From a virus, in IMG/VR virus record IMGVR_UViG_3300045988_118480, positions 1 to 40,965 of that record: 40,965 nucleotides of DNA. The stretch is one strand, 5' to 3'. Of this stretch, positions 1,278 to 39,324 are shown one piece after another. The notes under the pieces are model-generated. The model had not been told where the DNA came from. It was given only the letters and a program-made list of their open reading frames with translations, and made no database searches. How positions within the stretch are numbered: position 1 is the first letter of the stretch; every line of letters begins with the position of its first letter. The translations under genes and the position numbers were made by a program.

Positions 1278-1673
1278 ATGAGATATTTATATTCCGCGGT
1301 CTTTACGCCGTCGGAGGATGAGGGCAAGGTCTATGCCCGCGTGCCCGATCTGCCCGGCTGCATAACCACCGGAAGCTCTTTGCAGGACGCTATCATCCAG
1401 ATCACTGACGCCGCTTCCGGCTGGCTGGTCGTCGCCGAGGATAATTCAATACCCATCCCGCCCGCGACCCCGCAGGCCGATATCGAGCGCGCACCCTCCG
1501 ACATCCTTTCGGTCATCTGTGTCGACACCCTTGCCTATCGCGCCAGAACCGATACGCGGTCGGTGCGCAAAAACGTATCGCTGCCCGCATGGCTGGCCAG
1601 GCTGGCCGACGCCCGCGGCGTCAACTGTTCGCAGGTCCTTCAGGAGGCTCTGATCTCCCGCTTCGACGTCTGA
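1278..1673 (+). CDS. hicB: HicB-family antitoxin with a C-terminal RHH-like DNA-binding tail (131 aa)
   Basis: The N-terminus (YSAVFTPSEDEGKVYARVPDLPGCITTGSSLQDA) is typical of HicB. The C-terminus (VSLPAWLARLADARGVNCSQVLQEALI) is RHH-like. SD aaaaggagg at 1261..1269. Confidence 0.85.
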   Translation: MRYLYSAVFTPSEDEGKVYARVPDLPGCITTGSSLQDAIIQITDAASGWLVVAEDNSIPIPPATPQADIERAPSDILSVICVDTLAYRARTDTRSVRKNVSLPAWLARLADARGVNCSQVLQEALISRFDV

Positions 1674-1699
1674 TAATGTATACCGCTGCTTTTGCGTTT

Positions 1700-1727
1700 G
1701 CCCCGGCTCTTTGCCGGGGCTTTTTTT
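1700..1727 (+). terminator. Rho-independent terminator of hicAB
   Basis: gccccggc-tcttt-gccggggc followed by a T7 run. Confidence 0.8.
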
Positions 1728-1747
1728 ATGCTCGGCGTACATCTTTT

Positions 1748-1843
1748 ATAGTAGGGCGGGGAGGTGACGCAGGTATGGACGCTTTCGGGCGGTAAATGCC
1801 GCAGTTGCTCCAGCGCGTCGCCCGTCAGGATTATTTCAGCCAT
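1748..1843 (-). pseudogene. 5' remnant (about 32 codons) of an N6/N4 DNA methyltransferase gene, truncated at the hicAB cassette
   Basis: MAEIILTGDALEQLRHLPPESVHTCVTSPPYY reads as a leader plus the (S/D)PPY motif IV of beta-class MTases. The frame then runs into the hicAB terminator and antisense hicB with no further similarity. Its ATG overlaps the C5-MTase stop by 8 nt. Confidence 0.6.
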
Positions 1844-3650
1844 TGGCGGGCGCCTCCATTCCCACAGGTTCCGGCAGGCGCCAGTCCTCTGCGCGAACTT
1901 GGAAAGCGTCGCCCAGCTGCACGGTGTCCGGGAAATTGTGCTGTGTGGTCTGTACGGCGTATTTGTCAATCTCGGTTGCATAGTAGGCGGTGATCTCCGC
2001 GCCCAGCTTGTCCAGCGCGATATGGCCGCAGCTCATACCGTCGTACATGGAAAGCACTTCCACCGGCTCCTCCGTCAGTCCGGTAAAATGGCTCATAATG
2101 TGGGCAATCACGTCCACGGTCCAGCCGTTGCCCAGCATTTTATACGCCTGGGTGTCGCTGACGGGAAAGGCGTATGTGTCCGGCACGGTCTGGAGGCGTT
2201 TACATTCCGGCACGGTCAGCTTGCGAATGATGTAAAATCCGTCTGCCAGTTTAATGGGGTATGTCTTTCCTTTGATGGTGATCTGTCCGCCGCGAACCTC
2301 GTAAACCGGCATTTGCTTTCCGTCCGCCGTTACAATTAGAACGTTATTGTGTTGCCAATCTCCGTTTGCGGTCAGTGTTGGTGCTTTTTTATATTTCACT
2401 CCACCTAAATTGAAGCCCCGTGGGCGCTGAAAAATCGCGGATTCTACAACCAACCTGCTCTGGTGCCCGGTAGCGGCCACGGCGTTACTTTTCTGGTCGT
2501 CCCGCATTTCAAAAGCGGAACCATTTTCGCGTCCACGCCACGCCATACCAGCAGGCACAGCATAAAGGCCGGTGGCCGCGCCGTCGGCCCCGCCGCCGTT
2601 CGGCCTTGCCTTCAGAGAAACGCTCTTGCCGTCGGTGCTGTAAATGCGGCGGCTTTGGCTGGTGCCCAGTTCTCCGTCCTTGTTCGGCATGGCGCCGACG
2701 CGGACGGGGACGGCAATCATATTGTCTTTCTGAACGGTTGTCAGGCAGTTGGTTTTCTGCGGTTCTTCGTTTACCTCGAAATACTGGAAATGCGGGATCG
2801 CTTCGTTGTAATCGTCGCGGTGGCCTTGCTCGTTGATCCTGCGTCCCACGACGCGCCCAGCCACAGGCACGGCATAAAGCCCGGTTTTTGCGCCCAGGCC
2901 GCCGCCATTCCCACAGAGGGTTACGCTTTTGGCGTCCAGGCTGTAAACACGGTATTGCTGGCTGTCAAAAGTCTGGTTCTTTGCGTCGTTCTCAATGGTT
3001 CCGATCCTCACCGGCTCCACCAGAACGTTATATGGGACGCCCTTGTGGGTGTTCGCCGTCACGCAGGCACTTTTTCCCTGCGTTGCGTCGTGGAAATAAT
3101 CGAAATCAAAATGGTTCCGCCCGTCCTTGGTTTCGCGCACCATATAATCCATTTCTTTTTCGGTCAGCGGCTTAATGGCAACAGGTTCCGCCGCACCATT
3201 CCGCTGGTGTCTGGAAACCATGTCGTCCGCCGTGGTCCCGCCAGTTGTGGACAGCAGGGCATACCCTTTTTCTTTCCAGCAGACACCGCTTTCCAGAATG
3301 TCGCGCAGGAGGATCCCGCGGTCCACCGGCTGCTCCACCGCCACCTGACTGTATGTGCCGTCCGGGTTCCGCCTGCCCACCCAATACAGGCGCTGGCGGT
3401 TTTGTGCGCTTACCAAGGCGCTGTTAATCAGGACAGGCTCCACGCCTAACTCCGCCGTGATCTGCGCCCGGATAGCAGGCGACATACTTTTATTGTTTTC
3501 GTACAGGAAAAAATCCGGCTGGTACTTATCCCGCGCAATACGGTAATTCAAAAACAGTTCCCAGCCTATGCCGCTGGCTTCGGTTTCGCGGTTCTTTGTC
3601 TGTGCGATACTCCAGCGTGTGCAGGGGCTTCCGCCTATAAGTATTTTCAT
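1836..3650 (-). CDS. DNA (cytosine-5) methyltransferase with an apparently circularly permuted motif order and a long multi-module target-recognition region (604 aa)
   Basis: Motif order along the protein: IV (GGSPCTRWS), VI (LYENN), VIII (SAQNRQRLYW), a variable region of about 330 aa, IX/X (RLQTVPDTY...GNGWTVDVI), then I/II (LSMYDGMSCGHIAL...YATEIDKYA..QLGDA) at the C-terminus. SD aaggag precedes ATG 3650. Confidence 0.85.
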   Translation of the reverse strand: MKILIGGSPCTRWSIAQTKNRETEASGIGWELFLNYRIARDKYQPDFFLYENNKSMSPAIRAQITAELGVEPVLINSALVSAQNRQRLYWVGRRNPDGTYSQVAVEQPVDRGILLRDILESGVCWKEKGYALLSTTGGTTADDMVSRHQRNGAAEPVAIKPLTEKEMDYMVRETKDGRNHFDFDYFHDATQGKSACVTANTHKGVPYNVLVEPVRIGTIENDAKNQTFDSQQYRVYSLDAKSVTLCGNGGGLGAKTGLYAVPVAGRVVGRRINEQGHRDDYNEAIPHFQYFEVNEEPQKTNCLTTVQKDNMIAVPVRVGAMPNKDGELGTSQSRRIYSTDGKSVSLKARPNGGGADGAATGLYAVPAGMAWRGRENGSAFEMRDDQKSNAVAATGHQSRLVVESAIFQRPRGFNLGGVKYKKAPTLTANGDWQHNNVLIVTADGKQMPVYEVRGGQITIKGKTYPIKLADGFYIIRKLTVPECKRLQTVPDTYAFPVSDTQAYKMLGNGWTVDVIAHIMSHFTGLTEEPVEVLSMYDGMSCGHIALDKLGAEITAYYATEIDKYAVQTTQHNFPDTVQLGDAFQVRAEDWRLPEPVGMEAPANG

Positions 3651-3664
3651 GTTTCTCCTTTTTT

Positions 3665-3760
3665 CCGGCGCTCTGCCGGGAGGGCGCATGCCCACGCCCC
3701 CCGGCGGTTTAAGGTAATGGAGGAAAAAAGCTGGGCGTCATCCGCCCGGCAGAGCGCCGG
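3665..3760. repeat. 16-bp perfect inverted repeat (3665..3680 and 3745..3760) bracketing the 64-bp spacer upstream of the C5-MTase gene
   Basis: ccggcgctctgccggg and cccggcagagcgccgg. The inner arm ends 4 nt before the MTase SD. Confidence 0.5.
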
Positions 3761-3905
3761 TTATAGATCAAAACGGCAGGTCGCCGTCCTCAAAATCGGT
3801 CTCGGCAAAGCCGGACAAGGGGTCGGTTATGTCGTCCAGCTTCGGCCACGATCTCGACCGCCTTACGTTTATTGTCATTACGGTCGGTCCTCTGGCGGAT
3901 CGTCA
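3759..3905 (-). pseudogene. Duplicated, internally deleted 3' fragment of the ssb gene
   Basis: Near-identical to 4626..4837, with two mismatches in the first ~80 bp. A ~70-80-bp linker segment is missing, so the acidic DLPF tail is out of frame. The remnant frame reads TDRNDNKRKAVEIVAE. Confidence 0.75.
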
Positions 3906-3910
3906 CATGG

Positions 3911-4507
3911 TCATTCATGTCCTTCCACCGCTTCGCCGCCGTCGGATTCCAGAATGATTCCAGATTCCGTGAAGAAAGCCGGCCGGACGCCGAGGTTGCC
4001 GTCGCACGCGTAGGCGTTGTACAGACTGCCGACCGTGCTGACAAGGCGCGCGTGGCGCGCGTGGCCGGCGTACGGGGTGACAAGCCACCACCAGTCGTCC
4101 AGGGACAGAAGGGCCTTGTGCTTCAGGAACAGGGCTTCGGGAAGAAGGCTGATCTTCGCCTTCATGTTGCCATAGCCGAAGCCGCCGCGATGGTCAGCCA
4201 GGGACCAGTCCGCGGTCACGATGTTCGCGGAACGGATCGGACCGCCGGCGGCGTCGAAGGCCGCCAGGAAGGGGCCGTTCAGTTCGTCCTTCAGGTAGGA
4301 CAGACTGAAGTCGTTCGGGTAAGGGGTAGGGGCTTCCTCCGGACGGGTCTTCATGGGTTCCAGGGAGAAGGGGCGCCACGCGACCGCCTGGTCGGCGATC
4401 AGAAGGGTCGTTCCGTTGGTCATGTGATCCAGGACGCGGACGTCGATCGGGCCGGCGTCAAAGACGGCCCCAGGGGTCAGGTCCTTCAAAGTCTTAATAT
4501 TTGCCAT
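3911..4507 (-). CDS. Hypothetical protein, DUF6273-like (WWWLVTP...GVRPAFF motifs), 198 aa
   Basis: SD aaggagga precedes ATG 4507. The motif resemblance is from memory only. Confidence 0.7.
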   Translation of the reverse strand: MANIKTLKDLTPGAVFDAGPIDVRVLDHMTNGTTLLIADQAVAWRPFSLEPMKTRPEEAPTPYPNDFSLSYLKDELNGPFLAAFDAAGGPIRSANIVTADWSLADHRGGFGYGNMKAKISLLPEALFLKHKALLSLDDWWWLVTPYAGHARHARLVSTVGSLYNAYACDGNLGVRPAFFTESGIILESDGGEAVEGHE

Positions 4508-4634
4508 GTCGTTTTCCTCCTTCGATTATTTCGATAGACACTTCCACACGGGGTTTCTTCGGGTCCACAGCGACGTCGTCCGCGAAGCCCTCAATCTGGT
4601 TCCAGCCGTCGTTCAGCTTGATGTTGGTTATAGA

Positions 4635-5081
4635 TCAAAACGGCAGGTCGCCGTCCTCAAAATCGGTCTCGGCAAAGTCGGACAAGGGGTCGGTTATATC
4701 GTCCAGCTCAGCGGCGATATCTCGCCCGGCGGGTCTCCCGCTTCCGGCGCTGCCTCTATCACGCTTTGGCTCGGCGAAAAATACCTCTTCGGCCACGACC
4801 TCGACCGCCTTACGCTTATTGTCATTGCGGTCGGTCCACATGCGGGTCTGTATCCGCCCCGAGAGGGCGACCAGCTGACCCTTATTAAAATACTTGCAGA
4901 CAAACTCGGCCGTCTTGCCCCATGCGACGATGTCGATAAAATCGGTCTCGGGCTGTTCGCCGGCCCGCGCGTAGGATCGGGCGACGGCCAGCGCGAAGCT
5001 GCATACCGACGTGCCGCCCTGGGTCTGCTTCAGCTCGGGCGCCGCCGTCAGGCGACCCATGAGCACGGTCTTATTGAGCAT
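4635..5081 (-). CDS. ssb: Single-stranded DNA-binding protein (148 aa)
   Basis: MLNKTVLMGRLTAAPELK... is an OB-fold pattern, and the protein ends in an acidic tail FEDGDLPF. SD gagggagga. Confidence 0.95.
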   Translation of the reverse strand: MLNKTVLMGRLTAAPELKQTQGGTSVCSFALAVARSYARAGEQPETDFIDIVAWGKTAEFVCKYFNKGQLVALSGRIQTRMWTDRNDNKRKAVEVVAEEVFFAEPKRDRGSAGSGRPAGRDIAAELDDITDPLSDFAETDFEDGDLPF

Positions 5082-5083
5082 CC

Positions 5084-5635
5084 TTACATCCTCCCTCTGT
5101 TTTCCGGCGCTGCCGGCATCGGCATCCAATGGGTGACGATCCACTCGGAGGGATCGCGCTTGCCGGTCAGCTGCCATCCGGCGTATGACGTCCACCATCC
5201 AGTGGACACTACCCCGGCGTCGCGCCGGTTGCTGTATGCGTATATCAGGACATCCTCATCCTCCGGCGGGGAGGTATGTACGCTTGTCCACTCGGCCGTC
5301 CCCGCGGACTGTAGCCGGGCGATCTGCTTGTGGGCGTCAATGAGATCCTCGTTGATGGATATGAGCATATCCCGGGCGTCATATTTGAGGTCTTTAGCGC
5401 AATTCCGGCTTTTGCCAAAATATGCACATTTTTGACAATCGCCCTCATCGCCGCTATGCGTGCATCGCCACAGGCTGTCGACGATCCTATCAAACACGCT
5501 GCCGCCTATCGGCTCAAGCCCGAAGAGGCTGCGATCCTTAAAATGCTCGCATACGCCGTCCATAGCGGCGTCGGTATCGACCTTATGGGCGCACACCTCG
5601 TAATGTACGCAGTCCCTGCACATCTTCGTCAGCAT
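5084..5635 (-). CDS. Cys-rich protein with a C-terminal DUF551-like domain (183 aa)
   Basis: The C-terminus (EWTSV..PPEDEDVLIY....WIVTHWMPMPAAPE) resembles DUF551. ATG 5635 follows SD ggagga. The track start at 5641 is TTG. Confidence 0.7.
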   Translation of the reverse strand: MLTKMCRDCVHYEVCAHKVDTDAAMDGVCEHFKDRSLFGLEPIGGSVFDRIVDSLWRCTHSGDEGDCQKCAYFGKSRNCAKDLKYDARDMLISINEDLIDAHKQIARLQSAGTAEWTSVHTSPPEDEDVLIYAYSNRRDAGVVSTGWWTSYAGWQLTGKRDPSEWIVTHWMPMPAAPENRGRM

Positions 5636-5991
5636 ACCCAATCCTCCGATGTCGTGTCGAAGAAAGCGACCTGGAGCTCGGGCGGGAGATCCTCGACCGG
5701 CATAAGGCTTATGGGCTCCCTGTCGGCGTCAAGCCGGGTAAGCACGACCGTGCCGTACAGTTCCGCGTCAGCTATAGTTAATGTGCTGTCAGATTTGTCA
5801 ATGCGGCGCTGGTCTGCCTCGCTATACATAATGGCAAAATTGCCGTCCATCTCAATGCTGCTTCTTGCCCCGCCGACAAGGCCGTCGAGTATCTCGGCGT
5901 GGCTTTTAGCCCATATATCCTCATCTACCGTCGTCAGCTCGGGCGAGCATCCCGGACGCTTAACAAGCAGTCGTATCGTGTTTTTCATCAT
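5629..5991 (-). CDS. DUF3846-like protein (120 aa)
   Basis: MMKNTIRLLVKRPGCSPELTTV....LVGGARSSIEMDGNFAIMYSE... resembles DUF3846. SD aaggaag precedes ATG 5991. The upstream extension in the track is Arg/Lys-rich and looks like junk. Confidence 0.65.
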   Translation of the reverse strand: MMKNTIRLLVKRPGCSPELTTVDEDIWAKSHAEILDGLVGGARSSIEMDGNFAIMYSEADQRRIDKSDSTLTIADAELYGTVVLTRLDADREPISLMPVEDLPPELQVAFFDTTSEDWVC

Positions 5992-6493
5992 CCATCTTCC
6001 TTTCTTCTTCCATTGCGGCCATGTATTTTTTGATCTTCGATTTTTTGTTCTGGGCGAGGATCCGGTCACGATTAGCGGCATAGTATTCTCGGCGCTTACG
6101 ATTTTTCTCTTCGCGTGTTTGACGCTTCCGGGGTTCTTTTCCGGCCTTGCGTTGAGCAAGGATCTTTTCCCGATTTGCCGCATACTTTTCTCGCGCTTTT
6201 TTGTTTATTGCCTCCCGATTTGCTTCATTCCACTGTCGTTGTTTTTCCTTTATTTCGGCTTTGTGATCGGCGTAATATGCGGCATACCGGCGTTTTATCC
6301 GCTCTTTGTTTGCCTCATAGTACGCCTTGCGCTTTTCCCGTTCCCTGTCTATATTCTGGGCTCGGCGCTCTCGCTCCCGCTGGACCATTTGGTCCCTGTG
6401 GGCGGCATAATATGCCCGGTGGTATGCGTTATATCTCTCCCGGCGCTCATCATCGGTCAGCTCCCGCGGCCTGCCCTTACCCATGCATTTCAT
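5960..6493 (-). CDS. Basic protein built of tandem YYxxN(R/K)ExI-type repeats (about 177 aa; start uncertain)
   Basis: About six degenerate repeats: AYYAAHRDQM, AYYEANKERI, AYYADHKAEI, NEANREAI, YAANREKI, YYAANRDRI. Probably coiled and basic. Confidence 0.6.
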   Translation of the reverse strand: MKCMGKGRPRELTDDERRERYNAYHRAYYAAHRDQMVQRERERRAQNIDREREKRKAYYEANKERIKRRYAAYYADHKAEIKEKQRQWNEANREAINKKAREKYAANREKILAQRKAGKEPRKRQTREEKNRKRREYYAANRDRILAQNKKSKIKKYMAAMEEERKMDDEKHDTTAC

Positions 6494-6710
6494 CTCGGAT
6501 ATCCTGCGCCCAATCGCGCAGTGTGGGCAGCACACTATGTATGTACATCGGCAAGCCGAGTATCAGCAGCTCGCCGCCGACCGCTTCATATCCCCGCCAT
6601 GCATTGGCATGACTGCGGGCGGCAAGATAGAGCACGACGGCCACGGCCGTCCACCTGACCCACCAAAGCGCCGATTTAATCCATGGCGTCCGTCTCTTAC
6701 ACCTTCTCAT
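6477..6710 (-). CDS. Small membrane protein (77 aa)
   Basis: SD aaggagga precedes ATG 6710. Hydrophobic segments WWVRWTAVAVVLYLAA and LLILGLPMYI. Confidence 0.6.
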   Translation of the reverse strand: MRRCKRRTPWIKSALWWVRWTAVAVVLYLAARSHANAWRGYEAVGGELLILGLPMYIHSVLPTLRDWAQDIRDEMHG

Positions 6711-6973: not shown

Positions 6974-7153
6974 CTATAGTTTCCACTTCTCCATGCCGAT
7001 CTGCTCATGCGGCATGACGGCCTTGCACCACGGACACCACATATGCTTGATATGTCCGGGAGGTGTCATGTGCCGCTGTTTGGCGGCATACTGCACCGCC
7101 CCGCAGCCCGAGCATCTGAATATCCGCATATTGACTATTCGCGGCCGCTTCAT
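6974..7153 (-). CDS. Zinc-ribbon protein (59 aa)
   Basis: CSGC...CPWC. ATG 7153 overlaps the upstream stop as ATGA. Confidence 0.55.
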   Translation of the reverse strand: MKRPRIVNMRIFRCSGCGAVQYAAKQRHMTPPGHIKHMWCPWCKAVMPHEQIGMEKWKL

Positions 7154-7383
7154 TTTGTTTTGTTCATCCTGTTTCGCGCGCTGTCCACAGATGACGTCAT
7201 GCCCCATATCGTGCGGGTTATATTGGTTGTGTTATGACTTTTTTGCCCCCAAAGCATTTGCAGCGTCACTTGCGTTTTTGCAATTTGTTCCATTGCTACT
7301 CCGAGTTTGCTCCGTGTGTCAGCAAGCAGCCATGCTGTGCATGTCAACCACAGCGTCAGCGCCGTACACCATGCGTATATCAT
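7150..7383 (-). CDS. Small protein with an N-terminal hydrophobic helix (77 aa)
   Basis: SD gaggagga precedes ATG 7383, which is ATGA-coupled to the upstream gene. Confidence 0.55.
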   Translation of the reverse strand: MIYAWCTALTLWLTCTAWLLADTRSKLGVAMEQIAKTQVTLQMLWGQKSHNTTNITRTIWGMTSSVDSARNRMNKTK

Positions 7384-7592
7384 CGGCTCATATCCTCCTC
7401 TATCCCTAATATCTCATTTATGGCCTGGACAAAGCGGGGATTATGTATCTCTCCCATCCGCAGACGGTACAAATACGACCCGTCAAAATACAGGCCGGTC
7501 TTATCCTTGACCTGCTCTATGAGCCACCCCTGCGTCTTTTCAAGGTCTATTAGCCTCTTGACTATCTCTTTGCCATACGCAGTCGCGCCCAT
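7380..7592 (-). CDS. Small putative DNA-binding protein (70 aa)
   Basis: SD ggaggga precedes ATG 7592. Helical pattern EIVKRLIDLEKTQGWLIEQV.... Confidence 0.55.
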   Translation of the reverse strand: MGATAYGKEIVKRLIDLEKTQGWLIEQVKDKTGLYFDGSYLYRLRMGEIHNPRFVQAINEILGIEEDMSR

Positions 7593-7593
7593 A

Positions 7594-7806
7594 TCACTGT
7601 CCCTCCATCCACCGGATAAAGGCCAGCCGGGGGAACCGTACCTGGTGGCCATAGACCATGTAGGGGAAGGGAAGCAGCTCCGGCCGTTCCCGCGCCATAA
7701 GGCGCAGCGCGTGCGGGTCGATCTCCACGACCTGTGACACGACGTCGGCGGTCAGCATCTCCCTGTCCATCGCGCGGACGTCATCAAGACTGAGTTTCTT
7801 TTTCAT
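7594..7806 (-). CDS. Excisionase/MerR-type HTH protein (70 aa)
   Basis: MKKKLSLDDVRAMDREMLTADVVSQVV..D...LRLMARE..LPFP....G..VRFPRLAFIRWM. SD aaggaggga. Confidence 0.6.
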   Translation of the reverse strand: MKKKLSLDDVRAMDREMLTADVVSQVVEIDPHALRLMARERPELLPFPYMVYGHQVRFPRLAFIRWMEGQ

Positions 7807-8257
7807 CTTTCGCTCCCTCCTTTTTGGCATTGTAGATTACAAGCATAGATGGAAATGGTGCCCCGTCGGCGCTATTTCCATTTTCATCTTCAAAATGTAT
7901 TCGCCCTCGTAGAAACCGGATGTCCGCTTTGCCATAAATATAGTCGTGGAAATATGCCGTATCGGTTCGGGCCGGAATTAACAAAACTATAGGGAATCCC
8001 CCCCTTGCCTCATCAAAGGCCTTTTTTACCCATTTCCCAATTTCGCGGCCGTAAGGGGGATTGCAAAATACGGCGCCGCCTTTATCCCAGCTTTGAGCCA
8101 GACCGTCCGTTTCTGGGGTGTAGTACAAAGGACATTTTGCTGTCTCTTCTGTTGCTGCCGGGTCTAAGGCGAAATTAAACTCGGCATTGAGTTTGTCAAA
8201 AAAGTCCTGTGGCGTACACCAACACATATTTTTAGAGGATAACAGCGTCTTGTTCAT
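7784..8257 (-). CDS. Phage Dam-type N6-adenine DNA methyltransferase (157 aa)
   Basis: WCTPQDFFDKLNAEFNFALDPAA...FCNPPYGREIGKWVKK...LIPARTDTAYF...FLRGRIHF matches the T1/phage Dam family (PF05869-like). Confidence 0.85.
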   Translation of the reverse strand: MNKTLLSSKNMCWCTPQDFFDKLNAEFNFALDPAATEETAKCPLYYTPETDGLAQSWDKGGAVFCNPPYGREIGKWVKKAFDEARGGFPIVLLIPARTDTAYFHDYIYGKADIRFLRGRIHFEDENGNSADGAPFPSMLVIYNAKKEGAKDEKETQS

Positions 8258-8450
8258 CTTCCGCCCCTTCCTCCGAAAGTGTCCGCACGATTGCCGCGAC
8301 CTGTTCAAAGTCCAAATAGATGGGCTTGTTCTCTGTGATCCCCTTGATGTCATATCCGACGACATTCCCGAGGCCGTCCCGTTTTAGCGTGAATTCTGTG
8401 CATTTGACATCAAATACGACGCCGCTTTTAAGGACTATCCTTATCGTCAT
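8232..8450 (-). CDS. Hypothetical protein (72 aa)
   Basis: SD aaaggag sits 7 nt before ATG 8450. Confidence 0.55.
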   Translation of the reverse strand: MTIRIVLKSGVVFDVKCTEFTLKRDGLGNVVGYDIKGITENKPIYLDFEQVAAIVRTLSEEGAEDEQDAVIL

Positions 8451-8482
8451 TTGTCTCACTCCTTTCCGCCCGCTTCAGCGGG

Positions 8483-8671
8483 CTATTCTTCGGCGTAGAA
8501 CATCGTCCAGTCGAAGTCCAGTACCGCCGCAATACGTTTTGCCACGGCGACTGACGGGCGTCGATGGCCGGTCTCTATCATGTTGTAATACTGTTGGGAC
8601 ACTTCAACTTTTCTTGCGATGGCCTCCTGTGTCTGACGTGTCGCCACACGCAATTTTTTTAAATCAATAAT
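8483..8671 (-). CDS. Cro-like XRE-family HTH protein (about 62 aa; no canonical start codon, ATT proposed)
   Basis: HTH segment LKKLRVATRQTQEAIARKVEVSQQYYNMIETGHRRPS. A strong SD (aaaggagg, 8680..8687) is followed in frame by gca act ATT ATT. The track start (TTG 8758) lies upstream of the mapped promoter. Confidence 0.65.
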   Translation of the reverse strand: MIDLKKLRVATRQTQEAIARKVEVSQQYYNMIETGHRRPSVAVAKRIAAVLDFDWTMFYAEE

Positions 8672-8688
8672 AGTTGCTTCCTCCTTTA

Positions 8689-8739
8689 CACCATTTTGTT
8701 GTTCGTCTATGTTTGCAATATTATCACCATTTTGTTGTT
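8689..8739. promoter_or_regulatory. Two 15-bp direct repeats caccattttgttgtt (8689..8703 and 8725..8739), candidate operators
   Basis: Exact repeats 36 bp apart. One fills the spacer of the leftward promoter and the other lies in the cro-like leader. Confidence 0.55.
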
Positions 8740-8746
8740 TTGTCAA
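8718..8746 (-). promoter_or_regulatory. Leftward (lytic/cro-like) promoter: TTGACA, 17-nt spacer, TAATAT
   Basis: On the minus strand, -35 at 8746..8741 and -10 at 8723..8718. Confidence 0.65.
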
Positions 8747-8774
8747 TAGAGATATCAACGTTTTGGCGTTGTAC

Positions 8775-8803
8775 TTGCATACAACTTTTCGTTGTTATAT
8801 TAT
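8775..8803 (+). promoter_or_regulatory. Rightward (repressor) promoter: TTGCAT, 17-nt spacer, TATTAT
   Basis: -35 at 8775..8780 and -10 at 8798..8803, just upstream of the SD and ATG 8822. Confidence 0.55.
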
Positions 8804-8821
8804 TGCAACGAGGTGATACTC

Positions 8822-9130
8822 ATGGATACATGCCGTCTTAAAGCTCTTATAACCGCTTCTGGCCACTCTCAAAAAGACATAGCCACGTCTCTCAATTTGG
8901 GCCAGCAGCGCTTTAATTACTATGTAACGGGCAAACGTGAGCCGGACAATAGCACCCTTGTTGCCATAGCTTCGTTTTTTAATGTCTCGACCGATTATTT
9001 GCTCGGCCACTCTGACAGCCCCACGCCGGCACGTGACAATTTGCTTAAAATGGCTGCCGAGACTGATGATCCGGAAGAGCTGCTTGCTTTGCTGGACATT
9101 GTCAATAAAAAACTACAAGAGAGAAAATAG
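8822..9130 (+). CDS. CI-like XRE-family repressor (102 aa; no peptidase domain)
   Basis: MDTCRLKALITASGHSQKDIATSLNLGQQRFNYYVTGKREP is an HTH_3 pattern. The gene is divergent from the cro-like gene. Confidence 0.8.
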   Translation: MDTCRLKALITASGHSQKDIATSLNLGQQRFNYYVTGKREPDNSTLVAIASFFNVSTDYLLGHSDSPTPARDNLLKMAAETDDPEELLALLDIVNKKLQERK

Positions 9131-9141
9131 GAGGATCTATT

Positions 9142-10134
9142 ATGAGCACATCCGGCCTTGATGCTTTGCAAAAGGGGATCACAGCAAAGGAACCGGTCTA
9201 TAAGATAGCTAAACCGATCCGAAAGATGACAAAGCCATTGACTTTTATCGGGGTATTTCTGCTTGTCAGTTTCTTTTTTATAGCCACGGATTCGGCTCCG
9301 GAGATCTTACAACGATTGTGGACCTATTCTTTTGCCCTTTGGTTTTATTTTTCCATTGGTTTCTCGATCAGTCGATCTATCGGTGTGAGATACATTAACA
9401 AAAACGCCTGGCAGTTACCTTCGCTTTTGTCAGATATGGAAAAGTCCTATGACCTCGAAGAATATTTCCAAAGCCGAGATGAACTTATTAAGTATCTCTG
9501 TAAAATGGCAAGATGGGAAAACTATAAAAGTGCGCTCAACTCAAAGCCGACCGTCTTGCTTGCCGAACTGGAAACAACAAAGACAGAAAGTATAAATAAC
9601 GCAATCCGTCGCTCTGCCGCTCATTGCCGGGACCTTACCCGCAAACATAATTCATCCTTCGCCGAAATCCTAAAAGATGATATTTATAGTCATCGTGGCC
9701 GCCTGAACGATGAGAATATGGCTGTATATGAGGAATGTTATAAGAGCGTTGAATCTTTGGCCCAGGTCGTCGGAACAATAGATGAGGTCGATATTATGTC
9801 CGGCAATGACTTTGAGCATTGGTGCGCCGATCTACTGGCTCACAACGGATTTACCAACGTCATTGTCACTCAGGCCAGCGGCGACCAGGGCGTTGACGTC
9901 ACAGCCACAAAGGGCGGCGTCAAATATGCTGTGCAGTGCAAATGTTATTCTTCAGACCTCGGCAATACTCCGGTGCAGGAGGTCTATGCCGGTAAAGCAA
10001 TGTATGAGTGTCAGGTAGGTATTGTTATGACCAACCGGTACTTTACGGCGGGCGCAAAGACTCTTGCCGCCAAAACCGGCGTGCTTCTTTGGGACAGGGA
10101 CAAATTAATCGAGCTTATGGCAAACAAGATATAA
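9142..10134 (+). CDS. Membrane-anchored protein with a C-terminal Mrr-type (PD-(D/E)xK) restriction endonuclease domain (330 aa)
   Basis: Two hydrophobic helices (FIGVFLLVSFFFIA and YSFALWFYFSIGFSI). C-terminus: GNDFEHWCADLLAHNGFTNVIVTQASGDQGVDVTA...YAVQCKCY...VQEVYAG. It starts 9 nt after cI, and SD aggagg is present. Confidence 0.8.
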   Translation: MSTSGLDALQKGITAKEPVYKIAKPIRKMTKPLTFIGVFLLVSFFFIATDSAPEILQRLWTYSFALWFYFSIGFSISRSIGVRYINKNAWQLPSLLSDMEKSYDLEEYFQSRDELIKYLCKMARWENYKSALNSKPTVLLAELETTKTESINNAIRRSAAHCRDLTRKHNSSFAEILKDDIYSHRGRLNDENMAVYEECYKSVESLAQVVGTIDEVDIMSGNDFEHWCADLLAHNGFTNVIVTQASGDQGVDVTATKGGVKYAVQCKCYSSDLGNTPVQEVYAGKAMYECQVGIVMTNRYFTAGAKTLAAKTGVLLWDRDKLIELMANKI

Positions 10135-10163
10135 AAAAAGAGCGCCCCGCGGGGCGCTCTTTT
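10133..10163. terminator. Bidirectional rho-independent terminator
   Basis: An A7 run, the agagcgcccc/ggggcgctct palindrome, then TTTT. It sits between convergent genes. Confidence 0.8.
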
Positions 10164-10173
10164 GAGGAAGGTT

Positions 10174-10335
10174 TTAGGTTTTCCGTTTGCTTATCCTTGA
10201 TTTATTTAGTTTTTCGATAAAATTATTAATATCCTTTTGTACTTCGACACATTCCGCTTCGGTCAGCGTCTGTATCTTTGCTGTTAATTCTGCCCGGTAT
10301 TGTTCGAGCACCACCGGAGCCGTCTTGTTAGCCAT
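10174..10335 (-). CDS. Hypothetical small protein (53 aa)
   Basis: ATG 10335 follows SD ggagaaagag and overlaps the upstream ORF by 8 nt. Confidence 0.45.
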   Translation of the reverse strand: MANKTAPVVLEQYRAELTAKIQTLTEAECVEVQKDINNFIEKLNKSRISKRKT

Positions 10336-10531
10336 GACTGCACTCTTTCTCCAGCGCCGGGATGACCGCGGCCGCGAAGGTCTCAAGCGACGCCGCGTCT
10401 ATCTTGTCGATGTCCCGTGTGCCGTATAGCATCTCGAGAGCCGCTTCCAGCTCTGGCCGTCGAGGGCTGCTGCGTATCTGTTCCACGATCTTTACTTTGT
10501 CCATTTTTACACATCCCGTTTTTTCTTCCAT
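10328..10531 (-). CDS. Hypothetical small protein (67 aa)
   Basis: An ORF with a weak SD. It lies between the integrase and repressor modules. Confidence 0.45.
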   Translation of the reverse strand: MEEKTGCVKMDKVKIVEQIRSSPRRPELEAALEMLYGTRDIDKIDAASLETFAAAVIPALEKECSHG

Positions 10532-10679
10532 TGTAGGCCTTTATCTCTTGGAAAACAATGGTAATGATGGACAAATAAAGGTAAATATTTTCTACCTGCT
10601 AAAATACCGCAAAAAGCCGTTTTTTCGGCATTTTATATGTTATGATGGGGGTGTGTTCTTTATTTTTTGACACACAGCT

Positions 10680-10711
10680 AAAATAAAAGACCCGCCGATA
10701 TGCGCGGCGGG
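10680..10711 (-). terminator. Rho-independent terminator (minus strand)
   Basis: cccgccg-N7-cggcggg followed on the minus strand by TCTTTTATTTT. Confidence 0.55.
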
Positions 10712-10816
10712 CCTCACAGGATGTGGACAAAGCAATTAGCCCACGGATAGGACTATTTAAGTATACCACTTTTTGGGTGCTTTGTCTACCTCCAAATACA
10801 TAAGGAGGCAAAAAAT

Positions 10817-11983
10817 ATGCAATGCAAGAGCTGTAAGGGCCAAATCCCCGAGGGCGGGCGCTTTTGTCCATTTTGTGGCCGAAAAGTGGCCGGATTAAAA
10901 AAGCCGAAGCAGCGCGGCAACGGGCAGGGGACCGTATACCAGCTGCCCAATAAGACATGGATCGCGGCCCGTGTACAATATGACGTCGACCGCAACGGCA
11001 AAATGCGCAAGCGGTCAATATCCAAATCCGGCTTTAAAACCAAAAAAGAGGCCCTCGAGCATCTGCCGTCGCTGTCGCTGGCCGCGGTCGATCTGCCCGG
11101 CAAGCCGGCGCGCAGGAATACGGCCGTTACGTTTGGACGGTTGTATGATCTGTGGCTGCCGACCCACAAGGCGTCAAAATCGACGATTGACTGCTATCGT
11201 GCCGCTTCCCGATACTTTGCCGCCGTGTGGGATATGCAGATCGCAGACATAACGGTCGACGACCTGCAAGGCTGCCTGGATGATTGCCCCAAGGGCAAGC
11301 GCACCATGCAAAATATGAGGGCGCTGTGCGGGCTTATGTATAAGTACGCCATCCCGCGCAATCTCAACCCCACCGGGCTTAATATGGCCGAGTATCTGAC
11401 CATCAATGCCGACAATACATTTGACCCAAAGGATGCGCTGCCGCTTGACGCCCTGGCTAAGATAGAGCGTGCCGTCGGCGTCGTGCCGGGCGCGGACTAT
11501 GTTGTCTGTCAATGCTATCTCGGCTTCCGGCCGTCGGAGCTGCTTGCCCTCGACGCCATCAATTATAATCGCAAGGAGCAGGCCCTTGTCGGCGGCGCAA
11601 AGACCGACGCCGGGCGCGACCGCGTCGTCACCATATCCCCAAAGATCCAGCCGATAATTTCCCGGCTGACAAAAGACCGGGTATCCGGGCCTATATTCTG
11701 CACACCTTCAGGCGGCCGGATGACCACAAAGGCCTACCGTGCGCTGTTTTATTCGGTGTTGGACGCCTGCGGCATAGACAATCCCGTCATAGCGGCTAAC
11801 GGCGTAGAGCGTCGCCGGTACACGCCGCACAGCTGCCGCCATACCTTTGCGACCCTGCTTAAAAACATCAATGCGGCCGACAAGGACAAGCTGGAGCTTA
11901 TGGGACATACCAGCGATGCAATGCTCCGACACTATCAGGATGTATCATTCGCCGACCTGCGCAAGATAACCGACGCAATTTAG
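10817..11983 (+). CDS. int: Tyrosine recombinase / phage integrase with an N-terminal zinc ribbon (388 aa)
   Basis: CKSC-x10-CPFC at the N-terminus. C-terminus HSCRHTFATLL...LMGHTSDAMLRHYQD (the R..HxxR..Y pattern). SD aaggagg. Confidence 0.92.
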   Translation: MQCKSCKGQIPEGGRFCPFCGRKVAGLKKPKQRGNGQGTVYQLPNKTWIAARVQYDVDRNGKMRKRSISKSGFKTKKEALEHLPSLSLAAVDLPGKPARRNTAVTFGRLYDLWLPTHKASKSTIDCYRAASRYFAAVWDMQIADITVDDLQGCLDDCPKGKRTMQNMRALCGLMYKYAIPRNLNPTGLNMAEYLTINADNTFDPKDALPLDALAKIERAVGVVPGADYVVCQCYLGFRPSELLALDAINYNRKEQALVGGAKTDAGRDRVVTISPKIQPIISRLTKDRVSGPIFCTPSGGRMTTKAYRALFYSVLDACGIDNPVIAANGVERRRYTPHSCRHTFATLLKNINAADKDKLELMGHTSDAMLRHYQDVSFADLRKITDAI

Positions 11984-12022
11984 CCGCTTCCAGCATTTAG
12001 GCGCTGTGGGCATGGGCAATAG

Positions 12023-12042
12023 ATTGGTAATAGCAGACACCA
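12023..12042 (+). repeat. 20-bp direct repeat attggtaatagcagacacca, copy 1 (candidate integrase arm site)
   Basis: Identical to 12261..12280. The two copies flank the tRNA-like core. Confidence 0.6.
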
Positions 12043-12083
12043 ATTCCCGATTATTCACGACTTTTATTTTTATGCGCATGCAA

Positions 12084-12127
12084 AAAGCCCTGTATTTTTG
12101 TCATAATCGACTAAAATACAGGGCTTT
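12084..12127 (+). other. Long hairpin (15-bp stem) downstream of int, possibly a terminator or structural element of attP
   Basis: aaagccctgtatttt...aaaatacagggcttt. No immediate T run follows. Confidence 0.4.
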
Positions 12128-12150
12128 CCCAACACTTTTTGTTGGTTATA

Positions 12151-12203
12151 TGGTCCGAGTGACAGGAGTCGAACCTGCGGCCTCTTGAACCCCATTCAAG
12201 GGC
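12151..12203 (-). other. attP core candidate: the 3' half (anticodon arm to CCA) of a tRNA-Pro(GGG)-like sequence
   Basis: The minus strand reads CTTGA-ATGGGGT-TCAAG (anticodon GGG with U33 and G37), AGGCC, GCAGG-TTCGACT-CCTGT, CACTCGG-A-CCA. There is no D-arm or 5' acceptor strand upstream. Confidence 0.6.
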
Positions 12204-12205
12204 TG

Positions 12206-12247
12206 AAAACCCGCAAACCCGCTCGTAGAGCGGGTTTGCGGGTTTTT
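12206..12247. terminator. Strong bidirectional hairpin terminator (18-bp perfect stem)
   Basis: aaaacccgcaaacccgct-cgtag-agcgggtttgcgggtttt followed by T. It lies downstream of the minus-strand moron pair. Confidence 0.75.
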
Positions 12248-12260
12248 GAATGGGTTATAC

Positions 12261-12280
12261 ATTGGTAATAGCAGACACCA
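12261..12280 (+). repeat. 20-bp direct repeat, copy 2
   Basis: Identical to 12023..12042. Confidence 0.6.
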
Positions 12281-12307
12281 TTTCGCGCTTGTCATCCACT
12301 TTTCTCA

Positions 12308-12739
12308 TCATTCATCTTTAGCAATCAGCATCTCTATATATCCAGAAAGAGATACCCCATTTTTCGCAGCGTTGCGCCGAGCCTTCTCAGCGGCCGCACG
12401 ACTAACGGAAATTGAAAGTGTGGTCCGGATATTATCCTGTGTAATTGCGCCGAAAAGCTCTTTATTCTCATTTTCTCCGAGGTTTTCTTCTGCCCATCGT
12501 CGAGCTGCTGCCACAGTAAGCGGTATGATTTTCTCGGCGGGAACGCGCGTCCCATCCTGTTGGGTCTTGTTGTACGGGGATGTTGCATTGCCTTTCCCGT
12601 ACAAAAAAAACTCCCCTGTCCGTTTTCGGTATAGTTCTTCTTCGTACCAGTGCCCCTCATCTGGGGTGCCGTGGCTACAGATCCCGCAATTTCTTGCTGT
12701 ATCTGTGCAGTACAGCTTGTTGTTGATTATCTTTTTCAT
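12308..12739 (-). CDS. Hypothetical protein with an RHH-like C-terminal tail (143 aa)
   Basis: The N-terminus MKKIINNKLYCTDTA...GEFFLYGKG belongs to a Firmicutes family I cannot name. The C-terminus TTLSISVSRAAAEKARRNAAKNGVSLSGYIEMLI resembles CopG/RHH. Confidence 0.65.
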   Translation of the reverse strand: MKKIINNKLYCTDTARNCGICSHGTPDEGHWYEEELYRKRTGEFFLYGKGNATSPYNKTQQDGTRVPAEKIIPLTVAAARRWAEENLGENENKELFGAITQDNIRTTLSISVSRAAAEKARRNAAKNGVSLSGYIEMLIAKDE

Positions 12740-12748
12740 TTTTTTCGA

Positions 12749-13351
12749 TTACTCAGTGATCTTTGCGAGTTCCGATTCGATTTCTTCCAGGCGGGCAAGC
12801 AGTTTTGCTTTTTCCTCGAGCAGTTTTTCCTTTCCCGTCTTTGCGGGCTTTGTATCAGGCAACAGGCTGACACCCTCACGGTCTTTTACCTTGTTGTACA
12901 AATTACGGGACACATTGTACACTTCAAATACCAGCGCATCTGGATCTTCCGGAGCAACGAGCGGGCTTTTACTTGATCCGCCGGAGGCCTTAAACTTACC
13001 AGCAATGCAAGTTACCTCGTTGCCAAAGTATACAGCCGCATCGCGCATCCTGCGAGCCGCTATCAAACGATTGCCCAGGCGCATTTCGTTTACGGCTTCT
13101 GCGTCATCCCATGCGCATCCAGTCAGTTTAAGGTCGACCATATCCTCGTCCTCGCTGGATGTAGCTGTGCCATCTTCTCCATATACATCGCGCAGGATTT
13201 CTTTAACCCTTTCTTCCTGACGGATGTCCACTACCCAATAAGGGGCGTTCCATTTGCCTCCGAGACGCTTAATCTCGGAGATAAAAGTCTTATCATACGG
13301 GGATTTGACCATGATGCTGTTGCCCTCAATTTTGACATTCACTGTTGCCAT
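12749..13351 (-). CDS. Hypothetical protein (200 aa) with a C-terminal coiled coil
   Basis: SD gaaggagaa precedes ATG 13351. It is the first gene behind a consensus promoter. Confidence 0.65.
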   Translation of the reverse strand: MATVNVKIEGNSIMVKSPYDKTFISEIKRLGGKWNAPYWVVDIRQEERVKEILRDVYGEDGTATSSEDEDMVDLKLTGCAWDDAEAVNEMRLGNRLIAARRMRDAAVYFGNEVTCIAGKFKASGGSSKSPLVAPEDPDALVFEVYNVSRNLYNKVKDREGVSLLPDTKPAKTGKEKLLEEKAKLLARLEEIESELAKITE

Positions 13352-37749: not shown

Positions 37750-38148
37750 ATGCTTGTAAAAACATCTATACCCCAGGGTCCTATCACTCCATCACAATTT
37801 AGCTTTGCAGTCCGTGAGGCCGGTAATTATACCGATCGTGACGCCTATGTGTCTGACATTGCTCTGTCGGACATATGGGGCGCTGATGATCGCGACCAAA
37901 CTGCCGCTTCCCCCGACACTTCTGTTCTTCTTCCCCTTTTTTCCGATCTCTGGGACGTCATCCACATGCCTTTCCGCGACATTCGCCTGGCTCTCGGCAT
38001 GTCTTGCGCCGATTTTGCGGCGGCTTTTGCCATACCTCGCCGGACCCTATACCGGTGGGATCTCAATGAGACGCCATGCCCCCTCTACACCAAATTACTG
38101 CTTGCTCATGCTGCGGGGCTCTATGATTACCCCTGCATCAGGAGGTAA
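37750..38148 (+). CDS. Protein with a C-terminal XRE-type HTH (132 aa)
   Basis: FRDIRLALGMSCADFAAAFAIPRRTLYRWDLNETPCP. SD gaggagga. Confidence 0.7.
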   Translation: MLVKTSIPQGPITPSQFSFAVREAGNYTDRDAYVSDIALSDIWGADDRDQTAASPDTSVLLPLFSDLWDVIHMPFRDIRLALGMSCADFAAAFAIPRRTLYRWDLNETPCPLYTKLLLAHAAGLYDYPCIRR

Positions 38149-38153
38149 CGGCC

Positions 38154-39227
38154 ATGTCGCGTAAAAAACAGCCGGTCTATCCACCGATAGATTTTTTGAA
38201 AAAAATATCCGCGCGCTACCCTGGCATCTGGGATGAGATCGAGCAATTTCGAGCGCTCAACGGATCGTCGGCCAAACTCACCTGGGAGCCCTGGTGCTAT
38301 ATCCCGGCGATTGCCTCTTTGTCCATCCTTAGACAGCGTTTCCACCTCGACGGCGATTTGCATCAACTGCCCCGCGATCAGATAGAGGGCATCGCATCTG
38401 TGGCTTCCTATTTTTCCGCTTTGGCTCCGTGGCGTCAAAGCAAAGAGGTGTATGTCATGGATGAGGGCATGCAGGAGCTGCTTTTTGACCAGGCCGGGGA
38501 CTTGTCTCTTGACGCTGATATATTGCTGCGTTTGCCGTATCCCTGCTTTTACATCCAGTTTTCCCCGGCGGTAGTTTTTGCCGGTGAACAATATCATGGA
38601 GTATTTGTCCATCTCGATGACAATTTTGTCGAGCATCAGCAACAACTGACCTTGATATTTCTCCAGCCGGACGGCGAATCTACTATGATTGTCCCCGTCC
38701 ATCTCGAGGCTAAGACGATCTCCGAGAGTATGGCCATTACCGAGCGTCTCATCATGCGCACCCTGCCGGATAAGGCATCCGCCGTGGCACAACAGTTTGA
38801 GCTCCTTCGGCGCACGATGCAGCTTGTCTTGTATATATGCGCTCAAAACGCAGAGATAACCCCCAGTCCCGAGCAAGTCTCGCACACTAAGCGCTCTTCG
38901 GCCGGCGTGATCGTCGACCGATACGCCGAGATACGCAAGTGGGATGTGGGCATAAGGGTCGGCAACGCGGTACGCAATTACCGCAGACAGCAAGAGACCA
39001 CGCCCGTTGATGCTCTTGTCCGTACTCATGCTTCGCCCCGGCCGCACATGCGCCGCGGTCATTGGCATCATTTTTGGACCGGCCCTAAAAACAAGCCCGC
39101 CGAGCGTAAGCTGATCCTGCAATGGGTCGCACCTACCTTTGTGACTGCTTCCCACAAGGGCGACACTCCCGTCGTCCTGCACCGTGTGGACATGCCGGAC
39201 ACCGACGACCAGCCGCCCAAAGCGTGA
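38154..39227 (+). CDS. Hypothetical protein (357 aa) with a C-terminal basic His/Trp motif
   Basis: SD aggagg. C-terminus RPHMRRGHWHHFWTGPKNKPAERKLILQWVAPTFV. The family is not recognised. Confidence 0.7.
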   Translation: MSRKKQPVYPPIDFLKKISARYPGIWDEIEQFRALNGSSAKLTWEPWCYIPAIASLSILRQRFHLDGDLHQLPRDQIEGIASVASYFSALAPWRQSKEVYVMDEGMQELLFDQAGDLSLDADILLRLPYPCFYIQFSPAVVFAGEQYHGVFVHLDDNFVEHQQQLTLIFLQPDGESTMIVPVHLEAKTISESMAITERLIMRTLPDKASAVAQQFELLRRTMQLVLYICAQNAEITPSPEQVSHTKRSSAGVIVDRYAEIRKWDVGIRVGNAVRNYRRQQETTPVDALVRTHASPRPHMRRGHWHHFWTGPKNKPAERKLILQWVAPTFVTASHKGDTPVVLHRVDMPDTDDQPPKA

Positions 39228-39324
39228 GGCGTGCCGCTTCCGTTGTATGTGACAAAAGCCGGTATTTTTACCCCCAGAGAAAAAATTGAGTAGTGGAGTA
39301 CCCCTCAAAAAAAATCCATTTTTT

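Follow-up and report, generated by a model that had tools for sequence, protein, structure and literature searches.

A predicted membrane-anchored Mrr-type nuclease encoded behind the repressor of a temperate phage of gut Clostridia: a candidate for lysogeny-expressed defence or superinfection exclusion

The nuclease gene and the immunity region

The viral DNA considered here, IMG/VR record IMGVR_UViG_3300045988_118480, was analysed over its full length of 40,965 bp, referred to below as the window, and derives from a temperate phage of gut Clostridia. The subject of the analysis is a pair of plus-strand genes at 8822..10134, followed by a hairpin, in which a cI-like repressor gene is succeeded by a gene for a 330-residue protein that joins a predicted membrane anchor and a helical middle domain to a C-terminal nuclease domain of the Mrr_cat family. 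The features of the locus are listed below in window coordinates, with the strand in parentheses where one applies.

8483..8758 (minus): cro-like gene of the helix-turn-helix (HTH) type, divergent from the cI-like gene; Pfam HTH_3, E=2.8e-12
8689..8796: operator-like repeats, the 15-nt sequence CACCATTTTGTTGTT in three copies at 8689, 8725 and 8782, the third copy 80% identical
8822..9130 (plus): cI-like repressor gene, 102 residues; Pfam HTH_3, E=3e-10
9131..9135 (plus): GGAGG, a ribosome-binding site as read from the sequence, directly after the cI stop and 6 nt ahead of the nuclease ATG
9142..10134 (plus): membrane-anchored Mrr-type nuclease gene, an open reading frame (ORF) of 330 amino acids with its ATG at 9142
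9235..9291 (plus): predicted transmembrane (TM) helix 1, residues 32-50; Kyte-Doolittle 1.98; AlphaFold2 helix 31-47
9316..9381 (plus): predicted TM helix 2, residues ~59-80, aromatic-rich; Kyte-Doolittle 1.25; AlphaFold2 helix 54-88
9394..9777 (plus): family-specific helical middle domain, residues 85-212; AlphaFold2 helices with a predicted local distance difference test score (pLDDT) of ~90-97
9700: mosaic junction, where nucleotide homology (~94%) to the sister phage L001 resumes inside the nuclease gene at about codon 187 (blastn and tblastn)
9778..10131 (plus): Mrr_cat PD-(D/E)xK domain, residues 213-330; E225 at 9814-9816, D252 at 9895-9897, Q265 at 9934-9936, K267 at 9940-9942
10136..10163: hairpin terminator, 12 bp, G+C-rich, ΔG -22.1 kcal/mol, z=-4.2; common to the nuclease gene (plus) and the 70-residue ORF (minus)
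10174..10386 (minus): small convergent ORF of 70 residues, or 53 from an internal ATG; 81% identity in the sister phage
10817..11983 (plus): tyrosine integrase that closes the lysogeny module downstream; Pfam Phage_integrase (E=6e-12) and Arm-DNA-bind_4

The divergent HTH genes, the repeats, and a promoter between them are arranged as in a cI/cro switch. The copies of the 15-nt repeat, which are probable operators, lie between and inside the starts of the two genes, and a promoter scan placed a sigma-70-like promoter, TTGACA-17-TAATAT, on the minus strand at 8746..8718. Because the listed TTG start of the cro-like ORF (8758) is upstream of the ORF's own predicted promoter, its true start is probably internal. 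The cI-like protein matches PHROG families of transcriptional regulators and repressors and resembles the NCBIfam RstR-family repressor, with a score below the cut-off.

The cI-like gene ends with TAG at 9128-9130, and the gap to the nuclease gene is 11 nt, not the 9 nt given in the original prediction from this DNA; it holds the GGAGG, and no terminator was found in a scan of it. The operon-like coupling to the repressor that had been proposed is upheld, and a single promoter common to cI and the nuclease gene is plausible. The bidirectional terminator that had been placed at 10133..10163 is a real and strong hairpin (10136..10163) and, having an A-run on one flank and a T-run on the other, could terminate transcription both ways. 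It is the better terminator for the minus-strand ORF, on whose side the T-tail is stronger; the tail of the nuclease gene has only 4 U. The sizeable plus-strand genes identified in the window are only cI, the nuclease gene, and the integrase gene, whereas the minus-strand genes identified include those for a C5 methylase, SSB, Dam, VRR-NUC, a replication protein, and ParB_N. Since only cI and the integrase share its strand among these genes, the nuclease gene is on the lysogeny strand and, lying between repressor and integrase, has the lysogeny-module address that was originally assigned to it.

Domain architecture and diversification

The nuclease domain is a member of the Mrr_cat family and has the restriction-endonuclease-like fold. 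The Pfam model (PF04471) matches residues 218-326 with E=9.1e-30 and 103.6 bits, against a cut-off of 21, and is matched in all 44 homologues that were aligned; an AlphaFold2 model based on this 44-sequence alignment (mean pLDDT 85.4) has an alpha/beta domain at residues 213-329 with pLDDT ~90, and Foldseek matches to AF1548 (PDB 1y88), MspJI, AspBHI, and archaeal Hjc, each with a probability of 1.00, were confined to this domain. Glu225, Asp248, Asp252, Gln265, and Lys267 are invariant in the alignment, and Asp252, Gln265, and Lys267 align with the D...ExK motif (ECK) of AF1548, so that the core is catalytically intact as judged by its residues. The C-terminal Mrr_cat-like core was correctly recognized at the outset, with all of the motifs quoted for it, and the loss of catalytic residues on alignment that might have spoken against it is not observed. 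A sequence search of the PDB gave a marginal match to AF1548 and a spurious one to a designed coiled coil. The predicted DNase is probably sequence-non-specific.

Comparison with the PADLOC models gave matches to defence proteins, but these are confined to the nuclease part. The best match of the nuclease domain was to ZorD (E=1.2e-20), which was matched by all 44 family members and is limited to positions 929-1061 of a profile of 1071; four PDC-S02 profiles also match the query (best E=5e-12), only through the C-terminal nuclease part and over about a third to half of the profile.

The N terminus (residues 1-31) is a hydrophilic, Lys/Arg-rich tail with a net charge of +5 and is followed by two predicted TM helices, as originally proposed. 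TM helix 1 is clear; TM helix 2 scores low by Kyte-Doolittle in this allele and high in homologues, and has a predicted cytoplasmic extension to residue 88. Among the 120 best homologues, most carry 1-4 TM segments near the N terminus, and in homologues with two the mean number of Lys and Arg residues is 3.74 in the 15 residues after the last TM segment as compared with 0.66 in the 15 residues before it; the number is higher after than before in 63 of these 65 proteins. From such positive-inside statistics both termini and the nuclease are predicted to be cytoplasmic, and the charge distribution and the structural model together suggest a TM hairpin with both ends inside and with the nuclease at the cytoplasmic face of the membrane.

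The middle domain is new. It had been described as a helical region, and the AlphaFold2 model is all-helical at residues 91-209 with high confidence. The domain of the query has no match to a Pfam, PHROG, NCBIfam, or PADLOC family, the same is true for Pfam and PADLOC in each of the 44 relatives, and Foldseek searches of the PDB and BFVD gave no structural match outside the family. In a phmmer search of 1.84 billion representative proteins, residues 80-215 retrieved only 9 proteins of the same family, three of them truncated fragments, so that there is no sign of the module being paired with other effectors. The domain is a candidate adaptor, DNA-binding, or regulatory module. Sister lineages have in the middle slot an FtsK-gamma winged-helix DNA-binding domain, which fits a design of anchor, DNA or adaptor module, and nuclease, or have two nuclease domains in tandem. 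The combination of TM, FtsK_gamma, and Mrr_cat was seen in P0054, P0065, P0119, P0057, and P0030, proteins from related loci, and the tandem Mrr_cat pair in P0030, P0038, P0047, and P0060; in P0073 a fragment that resembles phage minor capsid protein 2 precedes the nuclease.

Comparison with the sister phage L001 shows that the gene is a mosaic. The flanks of the two phages are 94-99% identical, with 99% for the C5 methylase, 94% for Dam, and 97% for the integrase, whereas cro and cI are only 35% and 51% identical. Nucleotide homology ends at ~8452 and is back at 9700 (window 8452..9700 versus L001 5293..6559), and the block that has been swapped takes in cro and cI together with the nuclease gene as far as about codon 186. 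In agreement with this, residues 1-186 of the nuclease protein are 43-49% identical to the L001 allele and residues 213-330 are 97.5% identical. The anchor and the middle part thus travel with the immunity cassette. In the nuclease domain there are 15 synonymous and 3 non-synonymous changes with respect to L001, and the resulting dN/dS of 0.05 indicates strong purifying selection on this domain, and thus a gene under selection. The gradient of conservation extends to distant homologues, in which the nuclease is 69% identical to that of the query, the middle domain 24%, and the TM region 12%; the 3' third that encodes the nuclease is common, at 60-75% protein identity, to hundreds of phages of gut Clostridia that are not otherwise related.

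The low G+C content that had been attributed to the nuclease gene has the same origin. The count of 26 in 60 at 9181..9240 is correct, but the property is not peculiar to this gene: G+C is 45.6% in the nuclease gene, 46.6% in cI, and 43.8% in cro, as compared with 54.1% in the window, and within the nuclease gene it is 43.0% in the N-terminal two-thirds and 50.6% in the nuclease domain. The low values of cro, cI, and the 5' two-thirds of the gene are accounted for by the swapped cassette. The location of the junction at the start of the conserved 3' part suggests that the nuclease-coding sequence acts as a homology patch for cassette exchange. It can be proposed, speculatively and with the balance of probability well against it, that the anchor and middle domain are a specificity determinant inherited with cI and cro, that each immunity type would in this way have a matched exclusion nuclease as a second layer of immunity, and that the near-invariant 3' third would double as the patch through which cassettes are exchanged.

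Distribution and genomic contexts of the family

The protein database contains 1804 homologues, with ten clusters at 92-99% identity; one, from "Siphoviridae sp. cthae16," is 66% identical. Relatives are present in 248 IMG/VR viral contigs and at at least 563 loci of species-representative genomes, mostly of Oscillospiraceae, Lachnospiraceae, and other Clostridia, and mostly in metagenome-assembled genomes from animal and human guts; the majority of the relatives have a predicted TM anchor. A megablast search of positions 7000-13000 against 50,697 annotated phages gave no match, and tblastn against the annotated phages gave only nuclease-domain matches, in 8 records. Representative contexts, which are based on precomputed or deposited annotation, are as follows.

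P0011 phage (L001): HTH gene, nuclease, small ORF, tyrosine integrase
P0020 (L005): HTH gene, 139-residue ORF, nuclease, tyrosine integrase
P0032 (L090): CI-type HTH gene, nuclease, serine recombinase
P0059 (L093): HTH gene, nuclease (8-nt gap), serine recombinase two genes further
Roseburia phage Jekyll (L175, LR596902.1 41216..45599): Xre, "toxin," "putative restriction endonuclease," HslV-like protease, integrase
P0048 (L092): reverse-oriented moron between portal and terminase
P0119 (L177), 5001..5804: reverse-oriented moron between the Gp15 tail chaperone gene and the tape measure gene
P0041 (L007): chromosomal, between NUDIX and dCTP deaminase genes

The order of HTH gene, TM-Mrr gene, and recombinase gene thus recurs in unrelated prophages (L001, L005, L090, L093, and Jekyll), and a link of the homologues to lytic replication genes was looked for and not seen. 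The moron layout within structural operons (L092 and L177) is classic for accessory genes expressed from prophages. Jekyll is an isolated, cultured, mitomycin-inducible temperate phage, and its homologue (VUE37434) makes Roseburia intestinalis L1-82, which carries it as a prophage, a ready experimental system for expression and function. At a further locus, L071, a TM-Mrr_cat gene at 4608..5783 is divergent from the adjoining gene for a 799-residue tape measure protein (2227..4623). The adjacency to tape measure genes in L177 and L071 is of note since tape measure proteins are bound by the defence protein SNIPE, which is described below, but a neighbouring position is no proof in itself.

A broader survey of contexts covered 131 dereplicated loci and used our own gene calls and iterated hidden Markov models (HMMs) for recombinases and HTH proteins. 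Among relatives with a TM segment, a recombinase gene was found within 4 genes of the nuclease gene in 15 of the 46 viral and 17 of the 48 genomic copies. It was downstream and on the same strand in 32 of 35 such cases in the viral and genomic sets, and 25 of the 124 loci in these two sets have an HTH gene on the same strand 1-2 genes upstream. Simple binomial probabilities, in which kinship between loci is ignored, are ~1e-6 to 1e-9 for the proximity and 1e-16 for the orientation. In Pfam scans of the neighbours, HTH_3, Resolvase, and Phage_integrase were common, and Fic, Abi_2, and antirepressors also occurred.

Several other features of the window may be recorded. Two methyltransferase genes were verified, for a C5 enzyme (1839-3695, minus strand), whose ORF is long at 619 residues with two Pfam stretches, and for Dam (7787-8365). 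The original prediction counted three; for the third, only an ORF fragment was found, of 113 residues at 1640..1981 (minus strand), which overlaps the 3' end of the C5 ORF, has an SPPY motif typical of N4/N6 methylases, and may be what is left of a third methylase, or one with a frameshift. A 393-residue ORF at 38130-39308, also considered in this connection, has no Pfam or phage match. The 70-residue ORF at 10174..10386 has no family match; its position between the nuclease gene and the integrase gene would suit an excisionase-like or regulatory gene, with nothing backing either. The N terminus of the integrase has a zinc-ribbon-like CxxC...CxxC before the arm-binding domain (weak DZR/UPF0547 matches). 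No tRNA was found in a search of the window, nor was there an obvious attachment site. A highly basic ORF of 191 residues at 5960..6535 (minus strand) contains repeated YYAANR(E/D)(K/R)IL-like units, and there is a strong AT skew of -0.54 at 6001-6500.

Proposed function, alternatives, and known systems

The architecture, conservation, and position of the protein suggest a single-protein system in which a DNase, expressed in the lysogen and held at the membrane, would act in defence or superinfection exclusion; we assign this reading a probability of about one-half. The nuclease would be made by the lysogen, its gene being cotranscribed with that of the cI-like repressor or transcribed directly after it, and the two-helix hairpin in the cytoplasmic membrane would hold the middle domain and the DNase at its inner face. 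Tethering would keep an otherwise dangerous DNase off the nucleoid, and DNA entering through the membrane, above all the genome of a superinfecting siphophage, would be cut there, by analogy with SNIPE, ShdA of the Shield system, and ZorD. The fast-evolving TM and middle region might determine the range of invaders or host entry factors that the protein recognizes, with the near-invariant nuclease domain as effector. The phage's own DNA would be spared because in the lysogen it is chromosomal and because, when it enters a naive cell, that cell does not yet contain the nuclease, and no methylation-based self-protection would then be needed.

A number of considerations weigh against this proposal. 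Expression in the lysogen, DNase activity, the site of action, and the outcome for defence are all inferred. The middle domain, with a net charge of -2, is not basic overall, and no DNA-binding or tape-measure-binding feature can be recognized in it. About two-thirds of the relatives are located away from a recombinase gene, some of them in ordinary chromosomal settings, and the gene calls and neighbour HMMs of the survey are home-made. There is a weak promoter-like site inside the 3' end of cI, through which regulation of the nuclease could be independent of cI. Finally, PDC-S02 is an unvalidated PADLOC candidate of which one representative gave no protection against T4, T5, and T7 in Escherichia coli B, although it is a distant relative at best.

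The principal rival is an abortive infection toxin, an inactive nuclease held at the membrane that would be released or activated by envelope perturbation or by a protease and would then degrade host and phage DNA, killing or arresting the lysogen. The authors of the Shield study propose release or activation from the membrane, and the defence given by ShdA is at the population level (PMC10270631); most of the integron-cassette systems tested beside Epona, a membrane-associated Mrr_cat protein, halt growth or lyse cells (bioRxiv 10.1101/2024.07.02.601686). The Abi_2 and Fic neighbours at related loci, the HslV-like protease gene of Jekyll, and the lack of an evident target-recognition domain in the protein would also suit a toxin. 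However, no partner protease or sensor gene is conserved across the family loci examined, and SNIPE, the closest architectural analogue, acts directly and not abortively. Sequence alone cannot separate this mechanism from local cleavage of entering DNA, and we consider it unlikely, although it is the most serious of the competing explanations.

A role outside defence appears less probable again. The protein might restrict the acquisition of plasmids or of DNA transferred by conjugation, take part at the membrane in a phage-directed or host-directed DNA transaction, such as chromosome or septum-associated processing (to which the FtsK-gamma variants point), or aid the prophage at induction. Such a role would accommodate the FtsK_gamma fusions of the sister lineages and the copies in plain chromosomal contexts, as between the NUDIX and dCTP deaminase genes, and Shield has been found to lower transformation efficiency (PMC10270631). 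It does not accord with the strong and oriented association with repressor and recombinase genes and the placement as morons, with the location on the lysogeny strand, opposite to all of the replication and structural genes identified, or with the fast diversification of the N-terminal region, which is typical of genes engaged in conflict.

The protein might alternatively be a Type IV, modification-dependent enzyme of the Mrr/MspJI kind that is bound to the membrane incidentally and cuts modified DNA. The Mrr_cat domain itself, the modification dependence of the structural matches MspJI and AspBHI, and weak PADLOC mREase_IV matches point in this direction, but Mrr_cat is widely reused as an effector, as in Zorya, Lamassu, and Avs, and Pfam searches of the query and the 44 homologues detected neither Mrr_N nor SRA nor any further domain that reads modifications. 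A methyl-directed enzyme would, moreover, be harmful to this phage at induction in view of its own Dam and C5 methylases, and we regard the reading as distinctly improbable. The same results bear on the question, raised in the original prediction, of how the phage's own methylated DNA escapes the nuclease: the question presupposes a modification-dependent Mrr, a premise that is unsupported when there is no reader domain, and the puzzle largely dissolves. A catalytically dead membrane tether of the NA-iREase1 type, which would exclude or anchor DNA without cutting it, is very improbable, because the match to this Pfam model of "inactive restriction endonuclease" (E=1.3e-9, 38.4 bits) is far exceeded by that to Mrr_cat, and because the Glu, the Asp, and the QxK motif, which can be aligned with the AF1548 active site, do not vary within the family; the inactive-nuclease interpretation of the match was rejected on this ground.

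If the protein is a membrane-held defence nuclease as proposed, self/non-self discrimination by a nuclease parked at the membrane would not be confined to the GIY-YIG enzyme SNIPE of Proteobacteria but would have evolved a separate time in Gram-positive anaerobes of the gut, there on the basis of an Mrr-type nuclease. It would be carried by temperate phages in the immunity operon and would be very common, given the at least 563 genomic loci and 248 viral contigs with relatives, and it would constitute a major unannotated factor in competition between phages and in the resistance of lysogens among the Oscillospiraceae and Lachnospiraceae of the human gut, with a bearing on phage therapy and microbiome engineering. 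The mosaic junction within the gene provides a testable handle on the reshuffling of specificity modules and immunity regions. The concept of a membrane-bound defence nuclease has already been published, and it is the function of the Clostridia-phage family that is inferred here.

The original prediction could name no system with a TM-tethered Mrr nuclease in the immunity operon; membrane-anchored defence nucleases, namely SNIPE, Shield ShdA, and Epona, have, however, been described. SNIPE (PD-lambda-1) consists of a TM segment, DUF4041, and a GIY-YIG nuclease and cuts phage DNA at injection; without the TM segment it is toxic, its defence is direct and non-abortive, and its interactions with ManYZ and with tape measure proteins have been shown by experiment in E. 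coli (Saxton et al., Nature 2026, PMC13190303). The Clostridia-phage protein resembles it in being the product of a single gene with an N-terminal anchor, a helical middle part, and a C-terminal nuclease, here predicted to be cytoplasmic, and in having a conservation that decreases from nuclease to middle domain to N terminus, with variation in N-terminal length and TM number. The two differ in that SNIPE has one TM segment with the N terminus outside, as compared with a predicted hairpin with both ends inside, and a GIY-YIG in place of an Mrr_cat nuclease. No DUF4041 was found in the query at E<=0.1 or in the 44 homologues at E<=0.05, in the latter case among the 25 most-matched of the 33 families listed.

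ShdA, in which a TM segment is joined to an RmuC domain, is sufficient alone for defence, and constructs lacking the anchor could not be cloned, anchoring being thought to restrain toxicity (PLoS Genet 2023, PMC10270631). The likeness lies in the membrane-anchored nuclease, but the nuclease of Shield is RmuC (PF02646), which had no Pfam match in the query or the 44 homologues, and the system is found in Pseudomonas defence islands, often with the partners ShdB-E, and has no link to prophage immunity. Epona, a Vibrio cholerae integron cassette that encodes Mrr_cat with a holin-like pair of TM helices, is anti-phage in E. coli (bioRxiv 10.1101/2024.07.02.601686). As far as can be judged from its description, with which alone the comparison was made, it is also a single protein with two TM helices and Mrr_cat; no separate middle domain is mentioned for it, and its occurrence is nearly confined to integron cassettes of V. 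cholerae, whereas the Clostridia-phage protein has a family-specific helical domain of ~130 residues and a position in the repressor operon. A match to Phage_holin_3_6 was obtained in 1 of the 44 homologues and was weak (E=0.0033), with none in the query.

Zorya degrades phage DNA locally at the site of entry through the membrane, to which ZorD is recruited (reviewed in PMC13434031). ZorD shares with the Clostridia-phage protein an Mrr-like C-terminal nuclease, as reflected in the PADLOC results, but it is soluble, combines an SNF2 helicase with the nuclease, and depends for recruitment on the ZorAB membrane motor, whereas the Clostridia-phage nuclease is itself predicted to be anchored in the membrane. 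Neither an SNF2 helicase in the protein nor zorABC genes at the locus were found, the neighbours being cI, the small ORF, and the integrase gene.

Genes of the Sie type, such as those for lactococcal Sie2009 and Ltp of Streptococcus thermophilus, lie between repressor and integrase genes and encode membrane-associated proteins that the prophage expresses; they are small proteins without an enzymatic domain and act by blocking injection. The address between repressor and integrase is the same, but the Clostridia-phage protein carries an intact nuclease, and a PHROG search found no sequence similarity to Sie-type proteins. With E. coli Mrr and MspJI it shares the catalytic domain family and the D...QxK variant of the active site, but these enzymes are soluble and have N-terminal modification readers, whereas its N-terminal part consists of a TM hairpin and an unrelated helical domain. 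No description of the Clostridia-phage family or of its placement in the immunity operon was found in the literature. The protein falls outside SNIPE, Shield, and Zorya, although it resembles them in design.

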